DNA of 64,000 nt from a virus (taxonomy: Duplodnaviria; Caudoviricetes): positions 1-64,000 of the IMG/VR virus record IMGVR_UViG_3300021400_000136; one strand, given 5' to 3'. Position numbers and translations under genes: made by a program. Shown piece by piece: positions 14,942 to 33,379 of the stretch (position 1 is its first letter; the number at the start of each line of letters is the position of its first letter). The notes below the pieces were generated by a model, which was given only the letters and a program-made list of their open reading frames with translations, was not told the origin of the DNA and made no database searches.

Positions 14942-17900
14942 ATGCCTGATTTAATAAAGAAGAGACAAGAGATGACTGACTCCGGTACGGGCGATGTTAC
15001 CCCGGTTAACGTACCGGCTCCAACTCCTATTCCTCCGGCCAGTTCGCAGGCGGCTGGAAGAGCAGCGGCTCAGGCAGCGGCATCCGACCCTAATAAGCAC
15101 GCCACCCAAGCCGGTAAAGAGACTAGCGATGAGACTAATAAAAAAATGGGCTGGGGCGACTACGCAGAACCTACACCCACTCCTGAGTCCACACCCGACT
15201 ATTCCGGTTATTCCGAACCTACACCCTCTGCTGAGGATCTTGCAGCAGAGAATGCAGATAGCTATGAGTACAATCAAGCTGGAGAGACTCCGACCGTCAA
15301 GGCTGATGTAGCTGATGATACTGTCGAGGTTGCTGTCGAACCCGAGAAGCAGGAGGAGACCAGTAGCCAGGTGTCTAAAGGCAAGGAAGATGCTACGGCA
15401 ATGGGCGGTGTCGATGCCACTAAGATGGCGGAAGACGCTGTTATGCAAGGCCGTAGGGATGCAAGATACTATCCAGACTATACTGACTTCTATGGCGGGC
15501 TTGAAATTGATGGTACATCTCCGGATCGTAATGAACTGGATGAAAACGGCATGCACATATTCAAAGGCTATGAGGACGATGAGGGCAATTATGTCTCTGG
15601 CTTTGATGAGTGGTACAGTTCTAACAAGGCCGGTCTTACAGAAATAATTGACTTCGCTACCGATGGACAATTCCATACAGGTGATGAAGTGTATGCCCAC
15701 CAGAAGCTTGCTGCTAACCTTGCCTATGACTACCAGACGATGGCAGATTACTGGCAAGGTCGTATTGACGAAGCTAAGGAGTTTGTTGACTCCGCTCATG
15801 CTGATTTCGATGCGTTCAATTTTGACCAGTATGGTGAAGCGGGAGAGGAAGCAAAAGCAACCTGGCAGCAGGAACTGGATACGTTGGATGCCCAGTATGC
15901 TTCCATGGTCGAGGGTCTTGGTATCATCCAGGAGCATGGGGAAGCGGCAAAAGAATGCTATGATCTCATGGTGGAGAATAACAAGGCTTTTGCTCAGTAC
16001 GATGACGATAAGCTTCTTACTCAGGAACAGATAGATCAGCAGGTGTTGGATGCGGCGAAGAGCGCGAATGTGGCAACTGCATTCACTGATGAGGAGATAG
16101 CAGATTTCACTAAGCTCACCGACGAGCAGTGGGACGCGCTAATCGAAAGCGGTGAAGAGAGCTATGATAAGCGCCAGTTTAAAGCGCCTCCGATACCTAT
16201 CTTCAGCACTGAAGCAACCAGAGAGGAGCAGAGACTGGCTGACCTGCAGATCATGCGACAGGCCATCCAAGGGGCTCGTGATGCGGCTCAGTACAAGAAC
16301 GATGAGATTATGTTTGGCCGTAAGTATATCGGGCAGGATAATACTATCGCAGCTTGGGATGCAGCGGAAGCAGCACTCGAAGCTAATGCCCCGACAGCAG
16401 ATTCTACTCCGGAAGAGAAGGCTGCATACAACCATGAGCGCCGGTATATTCAGGAGAGAATTGATGCCTGCGAGTATAAGGCTTTCGTTGACGAGTATGC
16501 CGATGTAAGTGATTCAGATATTCGTCAAGAGCTTTTTGAAATGCGGTTTGGTAATGGCGAAACTACGACAGAAGATAGCGCGGATACTAATGACACAGCG
16601 CATAATTTGTTGACGGCAAAATCTGCTTACGATGCAGCAGAAGAGGCCTTTAATGAAATCGCCGAAACTGCCCGTCCTACATCGGCTGAGTACCTTGATG
16701 CATACCAGGCAATGAAAGAAGCGGAAGCTGCATACGCCGAAGCACTTCAGCTCGCGAAGGATGAGTCAAAACTCGATGTCGGTGAGATCTTCGACTTTTC
16801 AGCCTTTGCAGATATCTTATCTGGGGCGCCAGAAGAAAATGAACTCAGCGCCGAAGAGCAGAAAAGAGCTGAGTATCTCCAAAGATTGCTTCAGGATCGA
16901 GAGATATCGGCTATACAAGAAGAAATTAAGAGCTACGAAAAGGACTACCCAGATGGGACTGCTATGCGGCATTGGGCAGAAGATATCGAGCTCGACGTAG
17001 AAAAGAAAGAAGCAGCACTTCTGGACGCGCAGACAGAAGCAGGTAAGCTGGATGCAGAGGCTTATCAATATGCTACTGTAGACGCGCATAGTACAGAAAA
17101 TCATACGCCGGAAGAGGCGGCACAGAAGGCCCAAGAAGCAAAAGACGCGCACAATAGAGCACTGATCGCGGAGCAGGAGCTTGCTGAGGCGAAAGGAAAA
17201 CTCGCTCTTGTGCAGGCGCTGAACCAGACCAGTATCCGATCCGAAGCAGACTATGCCGAGCAGGTTGCCAAAGGTAAAGAAATGGCTGGAGATATAGCCC
17301 AGTATAAAGAGGCTATCGATACGGCGATGGATGTTGGGCTCGATAGGAAGCCTGCGGTTGATGCTCTCGTCACTCAGTTCGGCCTTACCCAAGAGGACGC
17401 CGAGAAGTACGTGGATATGTACTTCACACTGGACGAAAAGGAGAGGGCAGTACTTTTCCCAAATGTAGATGGAGTTGAGGAAGAGGAACAAGGCTGGCTC
17501 GGAAAATGGTGGGACAAAGTTACAAGGTCTCCGTACCTTGGTGAAAAAGAAGTAGGCAAATTTACTGACGAAGAACTGAATGACTTTTACTACCATCTTG
17601 CTAAGGAAGGTGCATCAGCTGCAGCTCAATATGCGATGGGTGTAAATAATGCCTATCGTAACGAGTACAACGATCTGGCGAAAGAGCGTTTCATGCAGTT
17701 GCAGAACTACAGGGCAGGTCATAATGGCAAGTTCCAGACTGCTGTAGAAGCGGCGATGATGCCTGTAGGTAACTTTGCGCTGAATCTCACAGCCCTTCCG
17801 GAAGCTATCAGTAATTTTATCCAGGCAGAAAAACTTGGAATGTCTGTAGCTCCTACCGATCCGACAAACAGCCAGTTGGCTGAATGGGCGCAGGAAAGTT

Positions 17901-20900
17901 CCAGTAGACAAGTTACGGCTATGCTGCCGAACTTCAAACCGGCAGAGTTCCTTTATAATACTTATAACAGTATCGTTAACAGTGCTCTGTCACTGGCAAC
18001 ATTCTCAGCTCTTGGTAGCGCACTTGGCTTAACAGATGATATCGTTATCGGTGGTAAAGGTGCTTTACAGGCATTCGTATCAGCAGCTACAGATCTTGAA
18101 TTCTTCGGTTCAGCAGCAGCCAGTAGGTACAGAGAGTTGCTTGAGCAGGGAGTCGATCCGCAGAAAGCAGGATGGGCGTCAGTGTACTCCGGTCTTGCCG
18201 AGGCTATGTTCGAGCACTTCTCCATTGAGAACTTGTACCACGCAAAAGGTGTTGCTGATTGGCATAATGCACTGGATTGGGCGTGGCACACAGCGTGTTC
18301 TGCCGGTGTCGAAGGCTCTGAAGAATTGTTCACCAACTGGGCTAACCGACTTGGTGATGCCTTATACTTAAAAGAAGATAATCCTTTCAACGATAGTGTT
18401 GATGCCTATATAGCGCAGGGTTTTGAAGAAGATCAGGCTCTGCGTTTTGCTATGCACGATCTGCTGAAAGAGGATGCTCTGTCCTTCCTTGGTGGTGCTA
18501 TCTCCGGTGGTGTTAATGCCGGTAGTTCCAGCATGATGGAGTGGCAGATAGACAAAAATAAACTTGCAGATTTCCGCGCATCCCAAGGTAAGAACTTCAA
18601 CATTGATCTTCCAAACGGAAAGAAAGCCTCACAGGAACTGGGTACTTATCTGTGGAATCATGAGTTCATCAGACCCGGTGACGAACATCTCTTCAACGAG
18701 GGACAGCGCAATACTGTTGAAGAAATAAAAGATCTGGCGTGGAAAGCTAGTGAGGGTAAAGCTTCTGACGAAGAGATTGGCCGTTTGCAGTATCTCACGG
18801 CACAATTCGACAGTAAAGTACTTGATGATTTTGCTCTCGCTAACAAAGATTGGTATGGCCGTGTAGAACCGATGCGTCTGGTACAGGTATCCCAGGAAGC
18901 ACTTAATAAGCTCCTTGGTCCTGAGAACGCGCAGAAATATCTTGAGGCAGTAAGAGCTAATCCGCATGCAAAAGTGGAGAACGACTTCTCCTTAGGACTT
19001 CAGCAGGCCGTTCCAAATATGGGCAGTAATGAAGCATCGGAAGTTGCTGGATTCCTCGAAAGAATATTCACAGGCTCTGACAGAACAACACCTGAAGATA
19101 TAGCAAAGGTATTAGACTCCGAATTGCTCAGTTCTCCAGAGGCTCAGATGTATCTTTGGAATTATCTGAAGGATAAGGTACCGACAGATACTCCCGCTAT
19201 TGAAGTGGCTGCCCCGGCAGAACCGAGTGGGCTGACTCCTTCTGCTGAATGGGCTGGCCAGAATGTAAAGAGAGAACCTTCTCCGATTAAACCTGCCAGC
19301 CAGATGGAAACTGACTCTGGAACAGAGGCCGCAGATAGAGAGCCTACTCCTATTCCCTCTGCGGAACAGGCAGCGGAGAATGAGAAGAGTAGAGAAGAAG
19401 CTGAAGCCAAAGCACGGGAAGAAATACAGAATCCGTTTATTCCAATCATGCAGTCGATTGGCATGGATCCGAATATTACATCGGAGAATGTAGGCGAAGC
19501 CTTGAAGAACCTGCTCACAACAACCTGGGAGAGAGCAAAGGAAGCGGCATATCAGAATCAGATACTGAAGAACGGCTTATCTGATACTAATCGTAAGTTG
19601 AACGATATGCAGCATGAAGCAGCTGAACAGCAGACGAGAGACAGGCTTAACCGCGCCCCGAAAGGTATAAAGACCGATGCGTTGGCCCAGTACAGAGATG
19701 ACTCCGACTCCATTACTTTTGGTAATAATACCACTACCCGTAAGGAGTTCGTTGAAGCCTATATGAAGGGCTATGACCCGTTCAACGATAAGGAGATAAA
19801 GGGGCCGAAAGACGAGAAGGCAGCAAACCGTGCCTTTGACCGTATCCTATTGAACAGCACCACAAAGGATGGACTTCCTCTTGAAGGTGTTAAAGCCTCC
19901 ATGAAGAACTACGATCTTTCTTTGCGGAAGGCTATTGTTTCTGATACCAAAAAAGGAACTGGAGAGCCTAAAGACCTGGAACGCAATGGCGAACCAAAAG
20001 CGCAAGAGCCAGCATCCGGTAAGCTTAATGTTCAGACTCCAACAGATAATAGTGCTGATATGAAGGAAGGCACGGCCACCGGTACGGAAGTTACCAGAAA
20101 TGGTGAGCCTGACCAGACAGAGCCTACTGATAGTAAGCTTAATGTTCAGAATCCAACAGATGATAGTGCTGACATGAAGGACGGCACAGGTACTGGTACA
20201 GAAGTTACCAGAAAGGGTGAGCCCGAGCAGACAGAACCTACTGGCGGCAAGCTTAATGTCCAGACTCCGGCAGATACTAGCAGTGATACCACAACGGGCC
20301 AGACTTCTGTCGATGGCAGTGAGTTGTCCAGAACTGAAAAGCCTGCTGAAGAAACTCCGGTAGAAGATCAGACCACTGAAGAGGTAGCTCCAGATAAAGC
20401 GCAGCAGTTCCTTGACTATCTCCAAGTCATGATGCAGCAGACTGGCGAGATGACCGATGAGGAATTCAATGCCCTGTTTGGTGGTGCTACTGACACAATA
20501 CTCGACGCATTGGTTGGAAGAGAACCTGCTAATGATTTCGAGCGTAGAGTTATTGATGCTGCTACGCGGGAGATGGACAGGCGCACATCCGAAGACCAGA
20601 CTATGGCTCAACAGGACGAAGCTCCGGCATCAGCAGAAACTTCGGATTTCAAAACAGATGATAACCTCTTCGCAACTAATGGAAAAGAGGATAAGAGCTG
20701 GCGCAGCTGGGATGACACAATAAATAACCCCGACAGCAACGATGACGAGATTATAACCAGAGCAGAGTTTGTTGAACGCGCTATGAATGGCGTTGGCAAG
20801 ATTAAGCCGATGACTTTCGCCGAGGCAAATGACTTGTTCGATGACTTGGCTTATATCGACGAACATGATAGCGATACCAACACGGACTACGGTAAAAAAG

Positions 20901-23900
20901 GTAGCAACCCAATGTACTCTGCAGGTGGCGCATCCACTGGAGCATCTGTAGCTACTGGTAGTGAACTCAATATGAAGCCGGTTACGTACTCTGCTTCGGA
21001 TGTTCCCGGCCTTGTCGAGCTTGGCAGGACGAGCTATTCCCCCTCTAACCGTACTATTAGTTCCTCTGACCGTAGCTGGGGTGATGCAATCAGCAATGAG
21101 TACGGCAAGACCATTACTCGTGCAGAGTTCGTTGCAGCTGCTATGTCTGGACAGAATCTGTACTCCGGTACCAGGATGCCTACAATTTCCGGTGTTGCAG
21201 CTAACGATCTGTTCGATGATATTGTCGATAATAAGATTGCTTATGGCGGATATGCCGACAGAACCAATAACGGTTACAGTATAACAGACGCTACAGTTAC
21301 AGCGGATATGCTGAACGCTCCTGGTTTTGTCGGAGCTATGGCTAACACACTGGCTATCCTCGAAGCGGAAATGAGGTCGGCATCTGATACGAGCAATCAA
21401 AAACTCGCTCCGTTCATGAAGCGAGTAGATTTAGCACGTAAGCAACTTGAGGGCCTGCTTGGACGGAGTGTATCCGACGCGGCAACCGAAGTTACTGACG
21501 TACGAAATCAGATCAACACAAGACTTGCGGAGATTAATAACAGGCTTGAAGTACTGATGAGCCGGTCGGATCAGAACAAGATCGGCTATCTGGTAGACCT
21601 TAAAGAAATGTCCCAGCTCAGAGCAGAGCGTCAGAAGCTAATGACTCAGACGTTCAGACTTGGGCAGGCAGAAGCAAAGTACACGAAAGCTCTTGACCGT
21701 TTGAACTCGGCAAGAAACAGAATGTACTCTAATGATTATTATTCTTATATTGGAGGAAAATTATATGGCGGACCAGCGGGTACTCGTGGACTCACCGGCA
21801 GGAACAACGATGTGGCTCAGTCCAGAAGCGGCGGATCGGTTACAGGATCTGCCGGAGGATCAGCTCAGTCGGTACAAGGAAATGCAGGAACAGTCTCAGA
21901 GCAGACTTTTAAAACTGTTGAAGAAATACTATCCGCAGGAGGGCTGACACTCCGAGGCAAAGTACTATTCGATTCTGCCGGGATGTCCCCGCAGGAGATA
22001 GCAAATGCCAAGATCCCGTTGTCCCTTCGTAACAGCATACTCCACGCTATGCGTAATGGTGTTGGCCGTGTTGTACTTACTGACGGTGATCTGCTGAATG
22101 GTAAATCCTATATTAATGAAAAGGGTAAAGAAGTTGAGCAGACAGTCGGTGGATTCTATGACACTCTCATGGACGGTGGTACGGAAAGATCTGTTATTGT
22201 TCTGCACAAAGACAGCTTCACCGAAAAGAACATCCAACACGAATACATGCACCATATGCTCCGAAAGATGTCTGAGCGTCAGAAGCGCGGATTTCTTACC
22301 AGCGCTATCCGGACAATGTTTGGATCACGCCAGGATCTCTTCGAAGAACTGTTTGACTCCTACAAGATCGACTATGCAATTGCTCATGGCAGAGTGATCG
22401 ATGAGAACGGCAGAGTGGATGAAGATCTCGCATATATTATATATGAAGAGATGGTCGCCGACTTCTATGCAGGACTCAATCGATTCAAGACCCCCGAGAT
22501 GGCAGAAGCGATGGGGCCGCTCGTCAGGGAGATGCGTGTAAGCCTGTACAATTACTGTGAGAGACTTGGACTTGAGGACTACGCCAGATCAAAATGGATT
22601 AACAGAGAGTATACTCCTAAAGAAGGAACTCTGGACATCCGGAGAACCGGTAGAGCCACTGCGCCGTATGAGCAGCAGTTCAAAGAAAGAACTGAATCAG
22701 ACAACGAACTGGCAAAGGGCGAACACCGATTCAATCCAGAGCGAAATGCTTATGAGGCGCGATTTAGTTTGGCCAATACTATGGGTGGAATCTACGACAC
22801 ATATGGTGTGGACATTAATACTGCCGAGGATAGCAGACTTGACGAACTGGCGAGGCAAATCGACGAGGAGTACGAGGCAGCGCAAAAAGAGCAGGCTGAC
22901 ATTCGAAGCACATGGACGGATAAGGACTACGCAGATCTCACTCCCGATGAATATTGGGCCCGATATCATGAGTGGAATGAGCAGTCTGGCATTGACGCCG
23001 TAAAACGTCGCGTCGATACACTTGGGTCGTACAGTCGTGCAATCAGCAAAGAGAAAGCTTGGAGAGCGATAGACCCAGAGGCCCTTATTCAAAAGGCAAA
23101 AGATATCTACGGAACCACTGATGACTTCCGGAAATCTGGGTACATCCTGCCGGATGGAACGATGTTGGATATGTCCCAGGGTGCCAACAAGCGGACTCTG
23201 TTCCACCATGAGACCGCTCAAGAAGTTCTGTTCGCCTTGAAGTATCCGGCTTCAGACGCAATTGAAAAATTCGTAGGTCGTGGCGGGGCCATCAGAATCG
23301 ATGTAGACTCCGATGGTATTGATATCCCGCAAAGTGGCATGACCCCGGCTCAGTACGAAACCCTGCGCGACTTTCTTTCTGACTTCATAGCTACTGAAGA
23401 CTACGATAGAGCAGCATTCTATGTATCTACTTTTGGTAAGAACCTGGGAACGTCGGAGAGATTTAATCCTTCCAATACCACACAGATCTTAAACGCAATT
23501 CGCCAGTACTACGATACAGGTTCCTTCCCGAAACAGTCAACCACACAGCAGTTCTACGGTAGATATAGCCTGGCCAACACAGAAGCTGTATCTCTTGACG
23601 AACTTCAGACAGCTCGTGATGAGATGCTTGATCTGCGTCAGCAGCTCAGAGATCGTAAGGCTGATGTCGATGAGTGGAGCCGTAGAATTATGGCTGGTGA
23701 AGCTGAGATCGACGACTACAATAAGTGGCTGTCCGATAGCGGTTACAACAGACTCTACATGCAGGAACGTGAGGCAAGCAAACGGTATAACGACCTCAAC
23801 CGCGCTTATGACGAGCAGCAGGAGAGCGCGAATGCCGAAGCCGAGCAGAACGCAATAGAACAGTCCGGCTTATCCGAAGCAGATTACTTTGGCAAAGAAG

Positions 23901-26900
23901 CCGTAAAGGTATTTGGTTATACACCGTACTTCTATGACGCTGGGTACATTACTCCGAACGGACGGATGCTGAACTTCTCCGGTGAGAAAGGTAAGCACTA
24001 TGGCTCTCGAGGCCAGGATCACCGGAGCATAGGCCAGATCTTTGCGGTAACTTCCGGCACAGAAGCCATGAACAGGTTTATCAGCTATGGTAATATCCGC
24101 ATTATGGCAGAGGCTCCAGGCCTGGATATCAGCGCGAATATCGAACCGACAGCAGAGCAGTACTCTAGGATCCGTGACTTCGCAAGGAGCGCACGGGATG
24201 AGGACTACTTCAGTATCGATATCACGGGCGAAGATGGTAGGGTCATTGATACAATCGAGTACGAAAGCGTCAACCCAGCGAAGATAGTAAACGATCTGAA
24301 GAACTACTACCGTACTGGTGAAGTACCGCAGCAGTCTGTTACTGCGCAGTTCCATGCTAGCTTTAGCCTTGTTGGCGTTTCAGATGATGGTATGGAGGTA
24401 TACGAAACCTCTCAAGCCGTAAAAGATATGACCAGGGAAGAACGTATGGACGCTTTCGAAGCACGAATGGCTAACGAGTTCAGAGGCCGTACCGCTAGAT
24501 TCGAAAGAAACGGTCATATCTACTATGCTAAGTTCGATAGTACTGGCGTTTCTAAAAATATCTATGGGGACGACAAGTCTGATCAGTCCGGATGGAGAGC
24601 CAAGATAAGAGCCGGAGCAGATGGCGATATCTTTGATCTGATAGAGAATTCTACTTATAATGGCAGCAGCGCAGAAAAGAGTGGAAAAAAAGGTAAGGCC
24701 CATAACAAGACCCAACGCTGGGACTACTTCATAAAGAAGGTCCAGATCGATGGTATTGTGTATGACCTCACTGCAAATGTAAGACGTAAAAACGATGACT
24801 TCGTTTATAATATCCAGCTTAACCGGGATATTAATACAAAACCGGCGACGTCTTACAGCCCACTCCCGAAGGCGGGTTTTAACCAAGACATCGCCGGTAC
24901 AGATAATGTATCACAAAACGGCTCAACTGTCAAGTACAGTAAGCAGGAACATCCGAATGCTAGGTACAGCCTGTGCGCATTTGAAGACGGCACAAAGTTC
25001 GTAAACGTCGAAACAGATCAAGAACAGTTTGATGGACTAACGGATAAAGAAAAGCGCGACTTAGCAGAAAAAATAATAAAAGAGCGGTTCTCCGGGAGAA
25101 TAATCGGTGAGACGAACAAAGCCTTCGTCAATAGCCAGACTGCAAGAGAGTATGCTTATCCGTCAAAACGCCTTACAGATAGTGGGGTACTTGACGCTAA
25201 GATGAGGGCGTCAACCGAACTAGATAATCTACTGGAGGCCGGTAGTAATTTTAGGACGGCACCTGATGGGGCTGACGGGCATACACACCCAGACGCCGTA
25301 GGAGGATTCACTTATTTTGACACGCTGTTTAAAGTAGGTGAGGAATTCTATAAAGGTCTTGTCAATATTAAGAATAATGCCAAGGGCGCTCTTCTAGTAG
25401 ATATTACAAAAATAGAAAACGTCACTAAGGACACATACAACTCATACGGAAAAAATCCGAAGTTCGTATTCCTTAATGACGTTTCTAATGATATTAAATC
25501 ACAGAATAACCCGAATGTCAAGAACCAAAATGAATCTGAGCCGAGCTACTCCATCGCTGTCTCCGATCCCGATACGTTGGACTTCCTTAACGACCAACTC
25601 GAGAACGGGGATGTAGTTTACACCTACAAATCCTTCCTTGAGTACGAAGACGAGAATGGAGATCCGTATCTAATTGCTCCTATGGCTGGTGTGCAGAAAG
25701 ACGAGACGGGCAAGAAGAGCCAGTCGCATGCCCTTCGTCCAGGTGTGTGGGAAGAGTCTGTTGGTAATCCCAACTCTAAGAGCCTCGGTAAGAAAGTCAA
25801 TGACAAGACCGGTGAAGTATCCTGGACTTATGGACTTGAGAAGAGTGACGTAGATGGTTCTGTTGTACCGGCTGCATATAACCCGTATCAGCACTCCAGT
25901 GATGTAGTTCTCAATGACCAGTTCTCCATTGCGTACAAACGTCCAAACCTGGTAACGTATATGTGCGCTATTCCTAAGAGTGAACTGACCAGTGGCTATC
26001 ACTTTGGTGTAACCGATCCTGAGAAGGCAACTCGTTCTGACGGCGATATTGTTACCGCAAAAGACGCGGTTGGTATGCACGACTGGAAGAGCGGTTCCCT
26101 AGCAAGCCAGTTAGAAAACACACAAAGACATGTGTATCTTTCTCGGTGGCTCATGCCGGTACGTAAGCTGTCCAACATAGAAGTTGCTCAGCAGTACAAG
26201 GAGATCCTCGATAGGGAAGCACCCGGTCTTGGTGTGCCATTCAATGTTGTACCTTCCGGTTTGCTCTCAGCTCTTCAGGAAGTTGGCGTTCCAATTGACC
26301 TTACTGGTACAGGACTATCTGAAGCCAACTACAGAAAATATCTTTCTGAAGTAAACGCTGCTCGTGAAGAGGCAGGTCTTGAACCGTTCCCGTACTCTTA
26401 TCAGACTAAAGCCGAAAGAGATGCCGCAAAGAAAGAACGGAAGAACGCTTCCAAACGGTTCTCGATCTCTGGAGACAACCTTGATAATCTTGACGATCTT
26501 CTGATGGATTATGATCTTTCGGATCTCGGAAGAATAGTTTCTGACACATTTGGTTCTACCTTTGAAACAGAAGAGGACGAAATGCCTCCTGAACTTCCGT
26601 ACGAACAACAGCGTCCTAGAAGATCTGTAGAGAACCCGACTCACAATCCAACTGCTTATCTGAAACCAGAAACACTAAATGCATGGCTGTCCGGAAGGGG
26701 CTTTGCCGATACAGGTAACCCGAACTATGCGCAGGCTTACATCGGATGGATGAATCCAGAGGACTTCCTATACTTGACAACCTCTACCTATGATTACGAG
26801 GACAATAGAGTAAGGGCGGAAGGATACTACGGTGATCTGGAAGATATCTCTAGCAGGGCGCAACGTGGAAGAGAAGCCGATACAATTCATCTTTCAATTG

Positions 26901-29900
26901 ATTCTGAAACAGGAAGAGTATACGGGCATGAAGGGCGCCATCGTATGGCCTACCTGCAAAGCCTTGGTGTGGAGAGAGTCCCTGTTCTTTTCTTTGACAG
27001 CGGAAATAAGTATGATAAGGAAATAATGGAGGACTATACTCTATCTGGAGAGCAGAGGCCAGGGAAGAAAGTTACTCTCGATAATCCTCTGATCCCTCTC
27101 AGCAATGGGTACAGAGGGCTTGTCGAGAACGAGTTCGTTAAAGGCGAAGAGCAAGACAACGATCTTCAGACAGCGCGATTTTCCATCACGGACGATTCGA
27201 ATGCCGATGGCTATACTCTGTCAGATATTGATTCCACAGGAAGAGAATTGACGGACGAGCAGTATTACTACTTCCGCAATTCGAAAGTAGTGGACGAAGA
27301 TGGGCATTTAATTCCGCTTTACCATGGAACGAATGCATTCGGCTTTACCGAGATAGACTTCGATAAAGCAGACGATGGAATATCCTTCTTCCTCACGGAT
27401 AGTCCAGAAGTGGCCGGGTCCTATACAAGGAACAATACTGTCCGATCCTTATTTGATAAGCAAAGACAGCGGCGGGCGATTGATGTATCAAAGCTTTCGG
27501 ATGAAGATCTAGCTTCGCTGTTTTCCCAAGTTAGTATACCGTACTTCGAATCAGCTACCGTATCGAAATTTGAGGATGTACTCAGAACCTTCACAGGCCC
27601 ATTGAACGCCGCAAAAATGCGATACGCCAGTTTCTTTGAAGAAGAACTGTTACCGTCCAGAGAAGATCTTGGCCTTACTGAAACGGACTTAGCCTTCTAC
27701 GACGCGCTGAAAGGCAACAGCACTAGTGTCGAAAGCATCATAGATTTGCTTGATAGAGCAGATAAATTCTATTATAGCCTTCGCAAAAAGATATGGGATA
27801 CCGACGAAAGCTATATTTGGGACGAAATGCGATCGCTGCAACCGCAATTACAAACCGCAGCTTCTCAGGCACAAAGATTTCTGGCTGACCATAATTCTGC
27901 TGGAGTATCTTTGGAGGATAATGTTTTTATTACGGATCCAGGTAGCAAGAATTTCTACACGAGAGAGCAAATCGAGAGACTTACTGGCAGAAGACAAGAG
28001 GAAGAAGAGCTCGGAAGGAACTCTGCCGGTATTTACAAGGGGTACGCAAATCTAACAAATCCATTTATTGTTGATGCAAATGGAGCTGAATGGAATCAGA
28101 TTCCGGTCGATCAAGAAGTAGTAGACTATCTAAAAGCACTTAATTCGCCAGAGTTCTACGTCTCAGAATGGGCAGAAGACGGAGAGGTTAAAACAAGGGG
28201 AATAGCTAAGTACGCAAAGGATCACGGATATGACGGCGCTATAATTAGAAACTGTGTTGACATCGGAGAGTATAAGCGTTCCTACGACTACGAAGCGTAT
28301 TCTACTCCGGCAACTCTGGTGCTATGCTTTGAACAGAATCAGTTCAAAGACTATAGAAATACAGAACCTACTGATGGCATTGATTTAAGATTTTCTATTG
28401 CCGATACCTATGACGCCTTTGGAGATGAAATCGATGTCCAAGATGGAACAGTTCTGAATGCAACCAAGTCCACACTTTCTGATCAGCTTTTCTATTCTGA
28501 AGACGGTAATACCGCCTACTACCAGCTCGACTCTGGTGAGACGGTGGTTATGGAGAACGTAGGGGAAGACTCTCCCGAAGCACGATACATTAATTTCTTG
28601 GAGGCAACGAACAATGCCAACAGTACTGACACAACCACAGCAAAACCTTATACGATACCTCCTGCAACTCGGTATGAATCTGATGGATATAATATCGGTG
28701 AATCGAATGATGGCCTACGACGAGGAGCGGAAGAAGTTCCTTCGGCGAATCAAGAAGGAACACTTCGACGTGCAGGAAGTAATGGAGAACGCAATGAACA
28801 GAGTCAACCGCAGAGTGAAGAGGCGGAAGGTGTAAGGTTCTCTGCCACTATCCCGACAGCTGACGACCCGAACCATCCGACAGCCTTCGTCAACCAGAAC
28901 GGCGATGTGGTTACCACTGCTGAAGCTTACCCGTACGGATCTATGGAGCGCATGATCATCGAGGCATGGAACACTGGTGACTTCAGATCTATTGAGGACC
29001 AGATTAACGAAATGCTCGATATCGGCCACGCCAGAGATGAAGTCTTCGATATGATGGAAGAGATCGCTGCACAGCCTCTGGGGCTTACTCCTCAGGAGCG
29101 CGACGCAGTCTACAGACAGATCGAAGAGATGCGTGTACGGTATGGAACGATGCCGTCGGCGAATGTTACGAAGCGGGATGTACATTTCCCAGTAGCTACA
29201 GACGACGACACCAAACTGATGAAGGGCGCACAGACCCATGCACAGGAGGCCGAGACCGAGTGGCTGTCTGAAGAGATCATGGCAGAAGCACTCCGTAACG
29301 AGATTCTCTCCTATGTCCCTGCATCTAATAAGTCCTCCATCGAAAAAGCGGAAGACTATATCAAAGCGAAGAAAGGTAATTACGAAGAGATCGCAAGAGA
29401 TGTCCACGCTTGGCTGGCATCCGGAGAGCGTGTCAAACCGTGGCAGGTAGCAGTCGGCGAACTCCTTCTTAAAGAGGTAGAAACCGAAGGCAGAGCAGAC
29501 CTCGCTATGTCTCTCGTAATAGACCTTACTCTTATGGCCCATGAAACCGGACAGGCTCTGCAAGCTTTCGCTATTCTCCGGAAGGCGACTCCGCGTGGAC
29601 AGCTCTACTATCTGCAAGGTGTTGTTAACCAACTGAATAAAAAGTATGAGAAACAGATCCGAGAAGGGAAGATGGGCAAGATCGAACTTCCGCAGGATGC
29701 TGCGCAGAGAATGCTCGCATGCGAAACACGGCAGGAACTGAATGACGTAGTCGAGGAAATAAAGGACGAGATCGCGAAAAAGATTCCTGTATCATGGGCT
29801 GATCGCTGGAACGCATGGAGATACCTGGCTATGTTGGGTAACCCCAGAACACACGTTCGTAACATGCTTGGTAACGGCCTGTTCCGTCCCGCCGTATTTA

Positions 29901-32900
29901 TCAAAGACGTTATCTCCAGAAGACTGGAGGATATAGCAAGTAGGCACGGCAAGCTGGAAGGTAGGTCTCGTATAGCAGGAGCGAATCTGAAATCCGATAC
30001 GGAATGGATGCGCTATGCCAACGAAGACTATGAGGAAATGTACAAGATCCTTGTAGGCGAGGCAACCGGTAATAAGTATGCTGATGCCAACGACATCCTC
30101 TCCAGACGAGATCTCTGGGGTAAAGACAAGTGGCTCGGTGGTAAGTTCCTTGCATGGGCAGACCGTAAGAACAGCGACTTACTTACTAAGGAAGATGCTA
30201 CATTCCTAAAGAAGTACTACACCAGAGCGTTTGCAGAATTCCTGCAGGCGAGGGGTGTAACGGAAGAAGATCTCCGTGATAAGAAGTTTGGCGCTACCAA
30301 GGCAAATAAGAAGCTCATCAACGAAGCAAGAGCATGGGCAACAATCGAGGCTCAGAGGAATACCTACCGTGATGCCAATGCAGTAGCTTCCTGGCTTAAC
30401 TCCATGAAGCGTCAGGGTACTGTTCCTTACACAATCCTCGAAGGTGTTGTTCCGTTCACCAAGACCCCGATGAACATCCTTGCCCGTGGTATTGAGTACT
30501 CTCCGATTGGACTGATTCAGAGCGTACGGCAACTGGCTAAAGATCTTCGTAGTCCGAGCGAGATGACCACCAGCCAAGCGCTGGATAGACTCGCTGCCGG
30601 TATGACCGGTACGATGATCGTTGGCCTCGGCCTGTTCCTCACTGCTATGGGCTGGCTCCGTGGAAGTGGTGGAGATGATGATAAGAAGAAAGAGTTCGAA
30701 GAGCTCATGGGTCATCAGGCATGGTCTCTTGAACTGTTTGGCTACAGCTACACCATCGACTGGATGGCACCGGCTGCACTGCCACTCTTCATTGGCTCCG
30801 CTATCTACGATATGCTGGCGACAGAAAGGGAAGAGGAGCTCGGCTTCGAAGATATCGTCAAGGCACTGCTTGGTATAGCGGATCCTCTCAGCCAGTTGTC
30901 CATGCTGGATGGTATCTCTACTATGCTCTCCAACCTGGCGGATGCACAGGGGACGGAACAATTCTCCGTATTACTCTGGACTGCACTGACAAGCTATGTT
31001 GGACAGGGTATGCCTACACTCCTTGGGCAGGTAGCTAGAACATTCGATCCGGATAGACGGTCAACGTATATCCAGCCGGGTAGCAAAAACCCGATGCTGC
31101 AGCGGTTTATCCAGTCCTCCATACAGGCTAAGATCCCGGGTTGGGAGAACCAGAAGATGCGGTATGTGGATAACTGGGGTAGAACAGACTCAGCCAATAC
31201 ACCTTGGGAGAAATTCCTAAAGGGCGTTGAGAACTTCCTTTCACCGGGTTATCTGAACAAGATCGAGACCTCCGCTGTTGAGGACGAGCTGATGAGGCTG
31301 TACGAAGCAACCGGAGATAAGAACATTCTGCCAGACAGAATGGGTAAGTACTTCCAGGTTGACGGAGAACGGAAGAACCTCACAGCAGATGAGTACGAGC
31401 AATTGCTCACGGAAAAAGGACAGATGCACTATAACCTTCTGAACGAGGTTATGTCCTCTGAGTATTACGCTTCTCTGACTGATGAACAAAAGGCAAAGCT
31501 GCTCCTCAACGCTGGAGAATTCTCAAAGAACTACGGCAAGCAGATGGTAGATCCAGAGTTCGATATGGACAGCCACTGGATGGATGTAGCAAGGGCAATA
31601 GGCCCCGCCGATTATCTGATGATCCAGGATGATCTTTCCCACAACAGGACTCATGACCAGCTGTTCACCTACCTTGTATCCAATCCGAATCTCAGCTACG
31701 ATCAGATCGCATATCTCATCGCTGATGAATATGCCGCTCCGGACAAGATTCCCAGTGTCGGTAACAACGGCTACAACTATGAGATCACTGAGGAAGATGA
31801 GGCAGCGATGCAGGAGATCTTCAAAGATCTGGTACATACGCGCCTTGCTGAATTAGAGACTGATCCCAGGTATGTTGCAGGCGATGAGTACAAGAAGGGC
31901 GATATGATGGACAACCTCTATAATGAAATTAAAGAGGATGTCAAAACAATATACGCCGAACAGCTCGATGCATCCGACCGTCCGATGGTACTTGGAAAGG
32001 CATCTTCTGTAGGAACCGAGTCCTTTAATATGGTACTCGATCTTACACGTAACGAGATCGAAGGAGAGTACAGGGATGACATCGCAGCACAGGCTGGATG
32101 GTTAAGCCAGAAGTACCGGGCTGACTCCCAGATCAGTAACCCCGATAGAGACGGCTGGGATATCAAGCTCAGTGCTGATGACAAGGACGAGCTGTATGAT
32201 GAATTCCAGAAAGCTTGGGAGCCTGCATACAGAAAGATGCTTACTGAAGATCCTGAGTTCCGCAACGCCACAAGCCGAGCATATCAGGATAAGATGATAG
32301 CATCCTTGTTCAATGAAGTTTCCCAGCAGGTAGAAGATGCATACGCTTCTAAACTGTACAAGTCCGGTAAGGCTGATGAAGTCATCGGCGATCCGAAGGG
32401 GACGGCAAAGAAAGACTGGCTGAAGAACTATGAGATTGCCAACGAAGCCTACACCAATCCTAAGGATCAGGCAGCGTGGTTAGCAAAGAGATTTACCGGT
32501 GCTACCACTTTGGACAACCCCGACAGACCTGGGTACAATATCAAGACGAGCGATGCACAGCAGGCTCAACTTGCTCAGATCGAACAGGATAGATTCACTG
32601 CCGAATATGAAGCAATGAAGAAAGATCCGAAGTTCAAGAGCATGACACCGGAAGAGCAGGCTATCCAGACATACCAGCTGGCGCAGAACATCATGGATGT
32701 CGAAGAGGCCAAATACTCCAGATATCTGCTGGATAGAGGCGCAAAGATCGAACAGGCAATCGATACTCAGTGCACGAATTCTGAATACTTCAATATGGTA
32801 TTCTCAGAAGATCTCACTGATAGCGAACGGTACGACCTGATCGAACAACGCTATGACAGATATGTTGGTAAGAGTATTCTCAATAACTCCCTCGACTACC

Positions 32901-33328
32901 TCCAGCAGCACCAACGTGTCGGGTACTACATGGACTACGTACGTGAGAACATGTATAAAGTCGCTGGACTTACCGGAGCAGAGGAAGCAGAAGCTTATAT
33001 CAAGAAGATCCATGAACCGGCGATGAAGGCATCCGGAAATGCGATCAAGGCAGACTATAATTTAGCCAAGACCACGGCGGAGGCAGATGACGCGGCAAAG
33101 ATAGCAGCCGGATATAACTACGGTATGCATCTCGGAACGGATCTGAATACTGTGGCGCCTAACACTACACCGGCGGAGGCTTCGGTAAGACCGAGGAACG
33201 GATATGTTATACCTCCTGCGGCTACAGAGAATACGCCAGAAACAAAACAAAGAACCAACTCTGGACTCGTGATCCCGACAGCTAACGAAGCTGTACAGGA
33301 CGCATTCAAGTACAGAAGGTTCTGGTAA
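14942..33328 (+). CDS. Giant polyvalent (virion-injected) protein, 6128 aa: zincin peptidase, duplicated unknown domain, two LPD3/BECR-like domains, ParB-like, ART-PolyVal-like, C-terminal LPD38-like
   Basis: GGAGG RBS and an uninterrupted 18.4-kb ORF. HEYMH (22238-22252) with downstream EEMVAD; H..F/W.YF..I/V.G..Y..NI/V motifs (24360-25550); GHEGRHR (about 26924); YHGT (27320)..FFLTDS..GYDG; C-terminal WLRGSG..WSLELFG.SYTIDW.AP. Confidence 0.85.
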   Translation: MPDLIKKRQEMTDSGTGDVTPVNVPAPTPIPPASSQAAGRAAAQAAASDPNKHATQAGKETSDETNKKMGWGDYAEPTPTPESTPDYSGYSEPTPSAEDLAAENADSYEYNQAGETPTVKADVADDTVEVAVEPEKQEETSSQVSKGKEDATAMGGVDATKMAEDAVMQGRRDARYYPDYTDFYGGLEIDGTSPDRNELDENGMHIFKGYEDDEGNYVSGFDEWYSSNKAGLTEIIDFATDGQFHTGDEVYAHQKLAANLAYDYQTMADYWQGRIDEAKEFVDSAHADFDAFNFDQYGEAGEEAKATWQQELDTLDAQYASMVEGLGIIQEHGEAAKECYDLMVENNKAFAQYDDDKLLTQEQIDQQVLDAAKSANVATAFTDEEIADFTKLTDEQWDALIESGEESYDKRQFKAPPIPIFSTEATREEQRLADLQIMRQAIQGARDAAQYKNDEIMFGRKYIGQDNTIAAWDAAEAALEANAPTADSTPEEKAAYNHERRYIQERIDACEYKAFVDEYADVSDSDIRQELFEMRFGNGETTTEDSADTNDTAHNLLTAKSAYDAAEEAFNEIAETARPTSAEYLDAYQAMKEAEAAYAEALQLAKDESKLDVGEIFDFSAFADILSGAPEENELSAEEQKRAEYLQRLLQDREISAIQEEIKSYEKDYPDGTAMRHWAEDIELDVEKKEAALLDAQTEAGKLDAEAYQYATVDAHSTENHTPEEAAQKAQEAKDAHNRALIAEQELAEAKGKLALVQALNQTSIRSEADYAEQVAKGKEMAGDIAQYKEAIDTAMDVGLDRKPAVDALVTQFGLTQEDAEKYVDMYFTLDEKERAVLFPNVDGVEEEEQGWLGKWWDKVTRSPYLGEKEVGKFTDEELNDFYYHLAKEGASAAAQYAMGVNNAYRNEYNDLAKERFMQLQNYRAGHNGKFQTAVEAAMMPVGNFALNLTALPEAISNFIQAEKLGMSVAPTDPTNSQLAEWAQESSSRQVTAMLPNFKPAEFLYNTYNSIVNSALSLATFSALGSALGLTDDIVIGGKGALQAFVSAATDLEFFGSAAASRYRELLEQGVDPQKAGWASVYSGLAEAMFEHFSIENLYHAKGVADWHNALDWAWHTACSAGVEGSEELFTNWANRLGDALYLKEDNPFNDSVDAYIAQGFEEDQALRFAMHDLLKEDALSFLGGAISGGVNAGSSSMMEWQIDKNKLADFRASQGKNFNIDLPNGKKASQELGTYLWNHEFIRPGDEHLFNEGQRNTVEEIKDLAWKASEGKASDEEIGRLQYLTAQFDSKVLDDFALANKDWYGRVEPMRLVQVSQEALNKLLGPENAQKYLEAVRANPHAKVENDFSLGLQQAVPNMGSNEASEVAGFLERIFTGSDRTTPEDIAKVLDSELLSSPEAQMYLWNYLKDKVPTDTPAIEVAAPAEPSGLTPSAEWAGQNVKREPSPIKPASQMETDSGTEAADREPTPIPSAEQAAENEKSREEAEAKAREEIQNPFIPIMQSIGMDPNITSENVGEALKNLLTTTWERAKEAAYQNQILKNGLSDTNRKLNDMQHEAAEQQTRDRLNRAPKGIKTDALAQYRDDSDSITFGNNTTTRKEFVEAYMKGYDPFNDKEIKGPKDEKAANRAFDRILLNSTTKDGLPLEGVKASMKNYDLSLRKAIVSDTKKGTGEPKDLERNGEPKAQEPASGKLNVQTPTDNSADMKEGTATGTEVTRNGEPDQTEPTDSKLNVQNPTDDSADMKDGTGTGTEVTRKGEPEQTEPTGGKLNVQTPADTSSDTTTGQTSVDGSELSRTEKPAEETPVEDQTTEEVAPDKAQQFLDYLQVMMQQTGEMTDEEFNALFGGATDTILDALVGREPANDFERRVIDAATREMDRRTSEDQTMAQQDEAPASAETSDFKTDDNLFATNGKEDKSWRSWDDTINNPDSNDDEIITRAEFVERAMNGVGKIKPMTFAEANDLFDDLAYIDEHDSDTNTDYGKKGSNPMYSAGGASTGASVATGSELNMKPVTYSASDVPGLVELGRTSYSPSNRTISSSDRSWGDAISNEYGKTITRAEFVAAAMSGQNLYSGTRMPTISGVAANDLFDDIVDNKIAYGGYADRTNNGYSITDATVTADMLNAPGFVGAMANTLAILEAEMRSASDTSNQKLAPFMKRVDLARKQLEGLLGRSVSDAATEVTDVRNQINTRLAEINNRLEVLMSRSDQNKIGYLVDLKEMSQLRAERQKLMTQTFRLGQAEAKYTKALDRLNSARNRMYSNDYYSYIGGKLYGGPAGTRGLTGRNNDVAQSRSGGSVTGSAGGSAQSVQGNAGTVSEQTFKTVEEILSAGGLTLRGKVLFDSAGMSPQEIANAKIPLSLRNSILHAMRNGVGRVVLTDGDLLNGKSYINEKGKEVEQTVGGFYDTLMDGGTERSVIVLHKDSFTEKNIQHEYMHHMLRKMSERQKRGFLTSAIRTMFGSRQDLFEELFDSYKIDYAIAHGRVIDENGRVDEDLAYIIYEEMVADFYAGLNRFKTPEMAEAMGPLVREMRVSLYNYCERLGLEDYARSKWINREYTPKEGTLDIRRTGRATAPYEQQFKERTESDNELAKGEHRFNPERNAYEARFSLANTMGGIYDTYGVDINTAEDSRLDELARQIDEEYEAAQKEQADIRSTWTDKDYADLTPDEYWARYHEWNEQSGIDAVKRRVDTLGSYSRAISKEKAWRAIDPEALIQKAKDIYGTTDDFRKSGYILPDGTMLDMSQGANKRTLFHHETAQEVLFALKYPASDAIEKFVGRGGAIRIDVDSDGIDIPQSGMTPAQYETLRDFLSDFIATEDYDRAAFYVSTFGKNLGTSERFNPSNTTQILNAIRQYYDTGSFPKQSTTQQFYGRYSLANTEAVSLDELQTARDEMLDLRQQLRDRKADVDEWSRRIMAGEAEIDDYNKWLSDSGYNRLYMQEREASKRYNDLNRAYDEQQESANAEAEQNAIEQSGLSEADYFGKEAVKVFGYTPYFYDAGYITPNGRMLNFSGEKGKHYGSRGQDHRSIGQIFAVTSGTEAMNRFISYGNIRIMAEAPGLDISANIEPTAEQYSRIRDFARSARDEDYFSIDITGEDGRVIDTIEYESVNPAKIVNDLKNYYRTGEVPQQSVTAQFHASFSLVGVSDDGMEVYETSQAVKDMTREERMDAFEARMANEFRGRTARFERNGHIYYAKFDSTGVSKNIYGDDKSDQSGWRAKIRAGADGDIFDLIENSTYNGSSAEKSGKKGKAHNKTQRWDYFIKKVQIDGIVYDLTANVRRKNDDFVYNIQLNRDINTKPATSYSPLPKAGFNQDIAGTDNVSQNGSTVKYSKQEHPNARYSLCAFEDGTKFVNVETDQEQFDGLTDKEKRDLAEKIIKERFSGRIIGETNKAFVNSQTAREYAYPSKRLTDSGVLDAKMRASTELDNLLEAGSNFRTAPDGADGHTHPDAVGGFTYFDTLFKVGEEFYKGLVNIKNNAKGALLVDITKIENVTKDTYNSYGKNPKFVFLNDVSNDIKSQNNPNVKNQNESEPSYSIAVSDPDTLDFLNDQLENGDVVYTYKSFLEYEDENGDPYLIAPMAGVQKDETGKKSQSHALRPGVWEESVGNPNSKSLGKKVNDKTGEVSWTYGLEKSDVDGSVVPAAYNPYQHSSDVVLNDQFSIAYKRPNLVTYMCAIPKSELTSGYHFGVTDPEKATRSDGDIVTAKDAVGMHDWKSGSLASQLENTQRHVYLSRWLMPVRKLSNIEVAQQYKEILDREAPGLGVPFNVVPSGLLSALQEVGVPIDLTGTGLSEANYRKYLSEVNAAREEAGLEPFPYSYQTKAERDAAKKERKNASKRFSISGDNLDNLDDLLMDYDLSDLGRIVSDTFGSTFETEEDEMPPELPYEQQRPRRSVENPTHNPTAYLKPETLNAWLSGRGFADTGNPNYAQAYIGWMNPEDFLYLTTSTYDYEDNRVRAEGYYGDLEDISSRAQRGREADTIHLSIDSETGRVYGHEGRHRMAYLQSLGVERVPVLFFDSGNKYDKEIMEDYTLSGEQRPGKKVTLDNPLIPLSNGYRGLVENEFVKGEEQDNDLQTARFSITDDSNADGYTLSDIDSTGRELTDEQYYYFRNSKVVDEDGHLIPLYHGTNAFGFTEIDFDKADDGISFFLTDSPEVAGSYTRNNTVRSLFDKQRQRRAIDVSKLSDEDLASLFSQVSIPYFESATVSKFEDVLRTFTGPLNAAKMRYASFFEEELLPSREDLGLTETDLAFYDALKGNSTSVESIIDLLDRADKFYYSLRKKIWDTDESYIWDEMRSLQPQLQTAASQAQRFLADHNSAGVSLEDNVFITDPGSKNFYTREQIERLTGRRQEEEELGRNSAGIYKGYANLTNPFIVDANGAEWNQIPVDQEVVDYLKALNSPEFYVSEWAEDGEVKTRGIAKYAKDHGYDGAIIRNCVDIGEYKRSYDYEAYSTPATLVLCFEQNQFKDYRNTEPTDGIDLRFSIADTYDAFGDEIDVQDGTVLNATKSTLSDQLFYSEDGNTAYYQLDSGETVVMENVGEDSPEARYINFLEATNNANSTDTTTAKPYTIPPATRYESDGYNIGESNDGLRRGAEEVPSANQEGTLRRAGSNGERNEQSQPQSEEAEGVRFSATIPTADDPNHPTAFVNQNGDVVTTAEAYPYGSMERMIIEAWNTGDFRSIEDQINEMLDIGHARDEVFDMMEEIAAQPLGLTPQERDAVYRQIEEMRVRYGTMPSANVTKRDVHFPVATDDDTKLMKGAQTHAQEAETEWLSEEIMAEALRNEILSYVPASNKSSIEKAEDYIKAKKGNYEEIARDVHAWLASGERVKPWQVAVGELLLKEVETEGRADLAMSLVIDLTLMAHETGQALQAFAILRKATPRGQLYYLQGVVNQLNKKYEKQIREGKMGKIELPQDAAQRMLACETRQELNDVVEEIKDEIAKKIPVSWADRWNAWRYLAMLGNPRTHVRNMLGNGLFRPAVFIKDVISRRLEDIASRHGKLEGRSRIAGANLKSDTEWMRYANEDYEEMYKILVGEATGNKYADANDILSRRDLWGKDKWLGGKFLAWADRKNSDLLTKEDATFLKKYYTRAFAEFLQARGVTEEDLRDKKFGATKANKKLINEARAWATIEAQRNTYRDANAVASWLNSMKRQGTVPYTILEGVVPFTKTPMNILARGIEYSPIGLIQSVRQLAKDLRSPSEMTTSQALDRLAAGMTGTMIVGLGLFLTAMGWLRGSGGDDDKKKEFEELMGHQAWSLELFGYSYTIDWMAPAALPLFIGSAIYDMLATEREEELGFEDIVKALLGIADPLSQLSMLDGISTMLSNLADAQGTEQFSVLLWTALTSYVGQGMPTLLGQVARTFDPDRRSTYIQPGSKNPMLQRFIQSSIQAKIPGWENQKMRYVDNWGRTDSANTPWEKFLKGVENFLSPGYLNKIETSAVEDELMRLYEATGDKNILPDRMGKYFQVDGERKNLTADEYEQLLTEKGQMHYNLLNEVMSSEYYASLTDEQKAKLLLNAGEFSKNYGKQMVDPEFDMDSHWMDVARAIGPADYLMIQDDLSHNRTHDQLFTYLVSNPNLSYDQIAYLIADEYAAPDKIPSVGNNGYNYEITEEDEAAMQEIFKDLVHTRLAELETDPRYVAGDEYKKGDMMDNLYNEIKEDVKTIYAEQLDASDRPMVLGKASSVGTESFNMVLDLTRNEIEGEYRDDIAAQAGWLSQKYRADSQISNPDRDGWDIKLSADDKDELYDEFQKAWEPAYRKMLTEDPEFRNATSRAYQDKMIASLFNEVSQQVEDAYASKLYKSGKADEVIGDPKGTAKKDWLKNYEIANEAYTNPKDQAAWLAKRFTGATTLDNPDRPGYNIKTSDAQQAQLAQIEQDRFTAEYEAMKKDPKFKSMTPEEQAIQTYQLAQNIMDVEEAKYSRYLLDRGAKIEQAIDTQCTNSEYFNMVFSEDLTDSERYDLIEQRYDRYVGKSILNNSLDYLQQHQRVGYYMDYVRENMYKVAGLTGAEEAEAYIKKIHEPAMKASGNAIKADYNLAKTTAEADDAAKIAAGYNYGMHLGTDLNTVAPNTTPAEASVRPRNGYVIPPAATENTPETKQRTNSGLVIPTANEAVQDAFKYRRFW
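19966..20285 (+). repeat. In-frame 120-nt tandem repeat (about 3 copies) in giant gene
   Basis: GEPxxxEPxxxKLNVQxPxDxSADMKxGTxTGTEVTR repeated; AAGCTTAATGT recurs at 120-nt spacing. Confidence 0.85.
21765..21947 (+). CDS. Nested +1-frame small protein (60 aa) inside the giant gene
   Basis: GGAGG (21752-21756), 8-nt spacer, ATG; MADQRVLVDSPAGTTMWLSPEAADRL...KKYYPQEG. The host frame turns into G/S/R/A-rich filler over exactly this span. Confidence 0.65.
   Translation: MADQRVLVDSPAGTTMWLSPEAADRLQDLPEDQLSRYKEMQEQSQSRLLKLLKKYYPQEG
24838..24898 (-). ncRNA. Candidate antisense small RNA 1 (closed 14-bp stem, inner C(UUCG)G hairpin)
   Basis: ACCGGCGAUGUCUU / AAGACGUCGCCGGU pairs fully on the - strand (U.G) but has a C-A mismatch on +. 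It starts 7 nt after a -10 box and ends in UUUU. Confidence 0.6.
24905..24933 (-). promoter_or_regulatory. Antisense sigma70/sigmaA promoter inside giant gene (TTGACA-N17-TACATT, extended TG)
   Basis: -35 at 24928-24933, -10 at 24905-24910, TGn present. Confidence 0.7.
25408..25486 (-). ncRNA. Candidate antisense small RNA 2 (closed 16-bp stem)
   Basis: GAAACGUCAUUAAGGA / UCCUUAGUGACGUUUU pairs fully on - (wobbles become mismatches on +). It starts 7 nt after the -10 box, is followed by UUUUU and contains CUUCGG. Confidence 0.6.
25493..25521 (-). promoter_or_regulatory. Antisense sigma70/sigmaA promoter inside giant gene (TTGACA-N17-TTTAAT, extended TG)
   Basis: -35 at 25516-25521, -10 at 25493-25498, TGn present. 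Confidence 0.7.
28614..28835 (+). CDS. Nested +1-frame small helical protein (73 aa) inside the giant gene
   Basis: GGAGG (28600-28604), 9-nt spacer, ATG; MPTVLTQPQQNLIRYLLQLGMNLMDIISVNRMM... The stop coincides with the next RFS linker motif, and the host frame is G/R/S/E filler here. Confidence 0.65.
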   Translation: MPTVLTQPQQNLIRYLLQLGMNLMDIISVNRMMAYDEERKKFLRRIKKEHFDVQEVMENAMNRVNRRVKRRKV

Positions 33329-33334
33329 AACGAC

Positions 33335-33379
33335 AAAACCCCCTACTACCGTAATAAGTAGTAGGGGGTATCTTTTTTT
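33335..33379. terminator. Bidirectional intrinsic terminator between the convergent halves of the genome
   Basis: CCCCCTACTAC (33339-33349) / GTAGTAGGGGG (33358-33368), with AAAA 5' and a T tract 3'. Confidence 0.85.

Follow-up and report, generated by a model that had tools for sequence, protein, structure and literature searches.

A small gene probably overprinted on the linker before the metallopeptidase domain of a giant phage polyvalent protein

Can the low-complexity linkers of a giant phage protein carry genes of their own? The question is raised by a 64,000-nucleotide stretch of a tailed-phage genome (IMG/VR record IMGVR_UViG_3300021400_000136, positions 1 to 64,000; hereafter the window), in which a single gene of 6128 codons, encoding a phage polyvalent protein, occupies 14942-33328 on the plus strand. 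Just ahead of a predicted metallopeptidase domain of this protein, the +1 frame contains an open reading frame (ORF) of 60 codons. The original prediction, made from the letters of the window, took this ORF for a hidden gene overprinted on a linker, and its product for a peptidase inhibitor or chaperone. Our comparisons of related sequences suggest that 21765-21947 is very probably a real, so far unannotated, overprinted protein-coding gene. The complete proposal, in which the gene is real and its product is also functionally linked to the adjacent peptidase, is more tentative, and we give it a probability of roughly 0.45.

The +1 reading frame in the window

As had been claimed, a Shine-Dalgarno (SD)-like GGAGG (21752-21756, plus strand) stands 8 nt (21757-21764) before an internal ATG (21765-21767), and this ATG opens a +1 frame of 60 codons that ends at a TGA (21945-21947). 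The other genes of the phage start alike, with AGGAG or GGAGG placed 5-11 nt before the ATG, and the start of the giant gene itself reads GGAGG-N9-ATG. The small gene is single-copy in the phage genome. Across its span the main frame is translated into G/S/T/R/A-rich, low-complexity sequence, which forms a linker at residues ~2277-2328 of the giant protein (21770-21925, plus strand); in the relatives described below this linker has a similar length and a poorly conserved sequence. The original prediction had described the giant frame as filler across this span only. The low complexity of the span was borne out, but the restriction to it was not, since at least one further linker of this kind is present at about 28614-28835.

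Without relatives, the ORF is not beyond chance on this sequence. The giant gene contains 18 ATG-started +1 ORFs of at least 60 codons and, since the +1 frame upstream of 21765 remains open to another ATG at 21732, the ORF can also be counted in a 71-codon version, which ranks 14th among them. When the main-frame protein was kept fixed and synonymous codons were redrawn, the span of the ORF was open in 7.5% of the trials. The arrangement GGAGG-N5-10-ATG was found twice in the giant gene, compared to 4.0 occurrences expected from synonymous shuffles, and both of these sites open long +1 ORFs (P = 0.048). It is the conservation in relatives that lifts the ORF above chance.

A promoter had also been proposed upstream of the ORF, and this we rejected. 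The letters TTGAAC-N18-TACTCT are present at 21701-21730, but they match the sigma-70 consensus at 7/12 positions, fall below the threshold of the promoter scan, which does not list them, and are not kept in L001, one of the related loci.

Conservation and selection in seven lineages

In the search for relatives, residues 2121-2620 of the giant protein were used as the query of an exhaustive HMMER run, which returned six other representatives with 30-37% identity. DNA was read from the loci L001 (for protein P0005), L002 (for P0009) and L003 (for P0015, which belongs to the P0006 cluster), from L007 and L010, both from IMG/VR, and from L008, from a Joint Genome Institute (JGI) metagenome. Together with the window, these loci make up the seven lineages compared here. 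The peptidase domains of the six relatives are 23-40% identical to that of the window, and in each of these loci the domain is preceded by a low-complexity linker of similar length.

A +1 ORF led by an SD-like site and an ATG was found at the same place in 7/7 lineages with readable DNA, with lengths of 60, 50, 55, 66, 62 and 54 codons in the relatives. In every lineage an SD-like site (GGAGG, AAGGAG, AGGAG or GAGG) precedes the ATG by 6-9 nt, and the main-frame residues beneath it differ among lineages (GG, QGE, TGD, EEE), so the ribosome-binding site appears to be kept independently of the protein encoded in the main frame. In-frame +1 stops or a lost ribosome-binding site in relatives had been named as signs against a gene; none was found among the relatives read. 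In the alignment of the seven products, M1, G13, E21 and L52 are invariant, and a hairpin-plus-helix motif is common to all. Note that none of the seven lineages has a main-frame stop within the span, which argues for genuine coding in both frames and against two genes joined by mistake.

Other searches gave no additional copies. There were no close DNA relatives in phage and plasmid collections, and no matches when viral and metagenome contigs were scanned with a single protein or with two sequences, nor in a degenerate DNA pattern search; the alignment of the small proteins was too variable for use as a locus query. A scan of bacterial genome contigs gave no match, and thus no copy in a host or prophage. 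Among 5.8 billion predicted proteins (33-105 residues) the 60-residue product had no relatives, as expected if nested ORFs are skipped by gene callers.

The relatives also indicate where the gene starts. In L001 and L003 the +1 frame has a stop 2 codons upstream of the conserved ATG, and in L002 and L007 the distance is 7-8 codons; this places the conserved start at 21765, and not at the ATG at 21732. The same stops bear on a different explanation of the ORF, a programmed +1 frameshift, in which GGAGG would act as a stimulator and translation would yield ~2270 N-terminal residues of the giant protein followed by an alternative tail of 60 residues. SD-like sequences stimulate frameshifting in prfB and dnaX, and a truncated product that ends before the peptidase could serve the phage. 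However, with +1 stops so close upstream of the ATG, with this ATG invariant in seven lineages and with no shared slippery sequence visible, we consider a frameshift very improbable.

Homology between the +1 products was detected in six-frame searches of the loci. Using tblastn, the window product matched L001 (1e-13) and L003 (4e-5), its 71-codon extended form matched L008 (3e-10), and the L001 product matched L002 (3e-5); the other matches against the window and the loci had E-values of 0.006 or worse. In support of these results, when hidden Markov models (HMMs) were built leaving out one member at a time and run against 1661 six-frame pieces, the left-out member was always the top non-training match, with E-values of 5e-17, 7e-16, 2e-16, 4e-6, 8e-7 and 2e-4, compared to 0.3 for the best noise.

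Similarity in the +1 frame could arise as a by-product of similarity in the main frame. As a null for this effect, the main-frame proteins were kept fixed, synonymous codons were redrawn and the +1 local alignment was rescored. The +1 score of the window versus L001 was 133, while the null gave 22.7 +/- 5.1 (z 21.7). For the window versus L008 z was 19.6, the median z over 15 pairs was 6.5, and in 12/15 pairs the observed score was never reached in 1500 resamplings. Moreover, the +1 product outscored the main-frame linker encoded by the same DNA in 12 of the 15 pairs; one example is the series PEAADR / PEAAER / PEQAER in the +1 frame, which lies over SRSGGS / AGSSRT / PGASGE in the main frame. 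A control +1 ORF inside the peptidase domain (22098-22397) had no +1 matches in any locus, and its main frame matched 5 loci with E-values from 1e-9 to 1e-20. In the tblastn controls, by-product similarity in the +1 frame was seen only where main-frame identity exceeded ~50%.

Within the ORF, the periodicity of the substitutions becomes that of the +1 frame. In the comparison of the window with L001, the upstream flank shows differences of 0.56/0.38/0.66 at the three main-frame codon positions, and the downstream flank 0.50/0.39/0.61. The ORF itself gives 0.54/0.48/0.39, which corresponds to 0.48/0.39/0.54 at +1 positions 1/2/3. These values have to be considered together with the possibility that the ORF is a fusion relic, that is, a small gene that once lay between two genes later fused by read-through in the other frame, and that is now unexpressed and shows residual conservation. 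The +1 offset would be the one left by a two-gene operon with a 4-nt overlap, and the codon usage of both frames over the span gives no sign of which of them is older. Synonymous sites are, however, near saturation (third positions in the flanks differ by 0.61-0.66), so an unselected frame would have gained stops and lost its ATG and its SD. Since the open frame, the ATG and the SD are kept in 7/7 lineages, and the +1 replacements are conservative, a relic is quite improbable.

It could also be that the nucleotides themselves are conserved, for instance because they form an RNA structure, act in packaging or make up a regulatory site in the DNA. A point in favour comes from the relative in run X2, which is ~96% identical to the window. 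This relative has one change in the ORF, 21929 C>T, compared to ~4% elsewhere, and by codon reading the change is silent in both frames (CTA->TTA and TAC->TAT); another change, at 21739, lies within the unconserved upstream extension. The pattern is consistent with double constraint but does not settle the matter, since the quiet tract (21638-22065, 2 changes in 428 nt) extends beyond the ORF, as conservation at the nucleotide level would allow. Against such conservation, ~47% of the nucleotides of the ORF differ between the window and L001, and yet the +1 product aligns at 1e-13. In addition, the changes are commonest at +1 third positions, and the RNA folds around the start are no more stable than shuffles (z -1.1 to +1.4), with none shared. 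A signal acting at the nucleotide level is thus barely credible as an explanation.

The quiet tract of the X2 relative abuts a patch of 14 changes in 64 nt (22066-22129), at the start of the peptidase domain. It may mark a boundary of recombination or encode a hypervariable surface.

The frameshift, the relic and the nucleotide-level signal all fit the evidence poorly: the ATG does not vary, +1 stops lie shortly upstream of it, the SD is conserved, the changes follow a protein-level pattern, and the RNA shows no significant structure. There is strong support for a hidden gene that is overprinted on the linker, with SD, ATG, open frame and a homologous product kept in 7/7 lineages and with selection visible in the +1 frame. 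The comparisons show that the predicted product, an acidic protein of 50-66 residues, is under purifying selection in the seven lineages.

The small product and the neighbouring peptidase

Following the linker, the main frame encodes a predicted zincin-like metallopeptidase domain (21908-22612, plus strand), with HEYMH at 22238-22252 and an EE..AD motif downstream. Residues H111, E112, H115, E180, E181 and D185 of the domain are invariant in the 7 lineages, and in the structural model (predicted local distance difference test, pLDDT, 90) they are located on helices 106-119 and 172-188. The sequence and its model therefore give the domain the HExxH motif and the downstream glutamate on a later helix by which zincin-like peptidases are recognized. 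Pfam gave no match in the half of the giant protein that contains this domain. With Foldseek, the best match was anthrax lethal factor (E 0.02, probability 0.89), and the exhaustive structural search (VIA) returned lethal factor with Z 5.4 (152 aligned, root-mean-square deviation 5.4) and Pro-Pro endopeptidases with Z 5.0 and 4.8. These fold matches, which also include PprI, HtpX and aminopeptidases, are weak and lie in the grey zone, but they are enriched in zincins, and they fit the link previously made between the peptidases of polyvalent proteins and lethal factor (PMC5512222).

Autoprocessing by the peptidases of polyvalent proteins has been proposed (PMC5512222). The giant protein contains 9 (R/S)(F/Y)S(L/I/A/V) motifs, compared to 0.9 +/- 0.9 in shuffles, all of them downstream of the peptidase and with domain-sized spacing; they span 22760-28846 (residues 2607-4635). 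These motifs are likely to be the cleavage sites that delimit the cassettes of the polyprotein, and we treat them as putative sites.

The small ORF keeps its distance to the peptidase. Its stop lies 62-104 codons before HExxH in every lineage, and homology to the upstream coiled-coil region of the window was found only in L001 and L008. The constant place before HExxH, with differing domains upstream, indicates that the small ORF travels with the peptidase domain, and the comparison of the loci shows the predicted gene to be inherited as a cassette with it.

The window product is acidic, with an isoelectric point (pI) of 4.9, and the five products for which pI was computed gave 4.8-5.3. The AlphaFold2 model, built from the seven sequences only, has a mean pLDDT of 80.4 and consists of a beta-hairpin (strands 6-9 and 15-18) and two helices (20-27 and a long one, 31-55). 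When the product was compared with small antitoxin and DNA-binding folds (ribbon-helix-helix, AbrB/MazE and helix-turn-helix), MazE reached Z 3.1, in the range of noise; the best profile match of the product in the PDB is CpxP (E 0.033). An embedded o-spanin of the Rz1 type was also considered and rejected: the window product is acidic and has neither a cysteine nor a hydrophobic N-terminus.

What could such a protein do? A role as inhibitor or chaperone toward the peptidase, as originally suggested, is plausible, and what speaks for it is the position of the gene. Ribosomes would initiate the small protein at its own start within the long late mRNA, and it would act in trans as the partner of the adjacent peptidase module. 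Most likely, its role as a brake or chaperone would be to keep the processing peptidase inactive in the producing cell, during synthesis and packaging of the polyprotein. Being separate from the polyprotein, the small protein would remain behind at packaging, and the peptidase could then cut the polyprotein at the recurrent (R/S)(F/Y)S sites, once inside the capsid or the next host.

Alternatively, the gene may be real and translated and have a function unrelated to the peptidase, the mutationally tolerant linker being used to encode a small protein that acts against host defences or in host takeover, or one that helps to package or assemble the giant protein. This is possible, since all the evidence for the reality of the gene applies equally to it. 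The product has no homology to any inhibitor family, viral overprinted genes often encode accessory or counter-defence proteins (PMC8227390), and the second, unrelated +1 gene that appears to lie on the linker after the ART domain (see below) suggests that linkers are coding space in general. However, the free use of linkers would not predict that the position of the ORF relative to HExxH is kept in seven lineages whose upstream domains differ.

Several observations weigh against the proposal of a real gene whose product is linked to the peptidase. Regarding the gene itself, openness alone is weak evidence (per-lineage P = 0.04-0.48 in synonymous resampling), because a G/S/A-rich main frame rarely yields +1 stops. 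The count of 7/7 omits four or five further homologous giant proteins (P0004, P0006, P0007, P0008, P0011), and the low-divergence tract of the X2 relative, being wider than the ORF, could be a recombination block. Contigs from RNA libraries cover the region (X5, overlap 21802-22123) and cannot separate the two frames. The yield from the internal start may also be low, because ribosomes elongating in the main frame run over it. Regarding the function, Pfam and PHROGs gave no match for the small product and so no pointer to an inhibitor. Its structural model found nothing above noise, with Foldseek E-values of 2.8 or worse and a best Z of 3.8 in the VIA search, in which the MazE match is likewise within noise.

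The enclosing gene, its second nested frame and known precedents

The window comes from a complete phage genome of 80,151 bp with direct terminal repeats, and the stretch was found in sequencing runs of ruminant gut metagenomes, as a rumen/gut phage. Upstream of the giant gene there are major head, tail-fibre and endolysin genes, which form a phage structural module, and downstream there are replication genes on the opposite strand. Pfam identified the domains ART-PolyVal (4.7e-11) and LPD3 (1.8e-7) in the giant protein, and their presence makes it a polyvalent protein in the sense of PMC5512222: it is giant and multidomain, carries the signature domains and lies in a phage structural context. 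A strong bidirectional terminator hairpin follows the gene at 33338-33369. Matches to sigma-70-like promoters between 14900 and 33400 number 15, compared to 22.2 +/- 4.6 in shuffles, and are thus, if anything, depleted. The giant proteins are mosaic, as seen between L003 and the window, which share 95% residue identity over 23619-24287 but ~30% in the peptidase domain (21908-22612); this pattern points to an exchange of modules between polyvalent genes.

A second +1 ORF lies on the other low-complexity linker, after the ART-PolyVal domain (region 28600-28835). It consists of GGAGG, 8 nt and an ATG at 28614, followed by 73 codons (28614-28835), and L003 keeps it with SD and ATG at 6239-6460. 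Between the window and L003, the +1 product is 87% identical and the main frame 77%, with 5/8/16 differences at the three +1 codon positions. The ORF forms an island of 78-92% nucleotide identity whose flanks do not align. From this comparison, it looks like another real overprinted gene, with a sequence unrelated to that of the first.

Nested out-of-frame genes are of a known kind, as in phiX174, and comS is nested out of frame in srfAB of Bacillus subtilis. As with comS, the ORF described here would be the gene of a small out-of-frame protein within a giant multidomain gene, with an internal start on the same mRNA. Unlike it, srfAB is a bacterial chromosomal gene for a non-ribosomal peptide synthetase, and ComS is regulatory and acts on the MecA/ClpCP adaptor, not on the protein in whose gene it is nested. 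A second-frame gene on the linker of a polyprotein is also found in a eukaryotic plus-strand RNA virus, where the nested product is conserved and the linker is free to vary, as here; that product is a movement protein of 320 residues, whereas ours would be a 60-residue protein of a tailed double-stranded DNA phage, with a bacterial SD-ATG start.

Among phages, the embedded spanin genes Rz/Rz1 of lambda are a nested out-of-frame pair (PMC5295617, PMC6139136). They share with the present case a small phage gene with its own start, wholly within a larger phage gene and in its +1 frame, and in lambda the two products work together. Rz1 is, however, a secreted lipoprotein with a lipobox, while the small protein described here has no signal peptide and its window copy no cysteine; moreover, the enclosing gene is here that of a polyvalent, virion-type protein and not a lysis gene. 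With the polyvalent proteins (Iyer, Burroughs, Anand, de Souza, Aravind 2017, PMC5512222) the giant protein shares its size and multidomain make-up, its place beside virion genes, the ART-PolyVal and LPD3 domains, and a predicted zincin-like peptidase with HExxH, for which autoprocessing is proposed. That description is extended here by the dual-coding linker: in a term search of the text of PMC5512222, 'overlapping', 'linker' and 'low-complexity' were nowhere found, and our literature search found no description of such nested genes in polyvalent proteins. The comparative support is strong, and the ORF would represent a new family of small proteins in a new host-gene context.

A broader proposal, which we regard as doubtful, is that polyvalent proteins carry their own regulators in their linkers. 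The +1 gene before the peptidase would be a non-packaged brake that times self-cleavage, the gene at 28614-28835 would have the same role for the toxic ART domain, and dual-coding linkers would be a general layer of control in injected phage polyproteins.

The family has consequences for how these genomes are read. Gene callers never report nested out-of-frame genes, which is why it is absent from a collection of billions of predicted proteins, and yet it appears to be under clear selection in phages from several rumen/gut data sets. The results suggest that giant polyvalent proteins can have 'filler' linkers whose DNA codes in two frames, and they would provide a further component for the injected phage proteins, a class whose processing and timing are poorly understood. 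The gene also offers a genetic handle, since the substitution T21766C would remove its start codon and leave the giant protein unaltered. If it is true that the small product controls the peptidase, this would explain how a self-cleaving polyprotein stays intact until its delivery.

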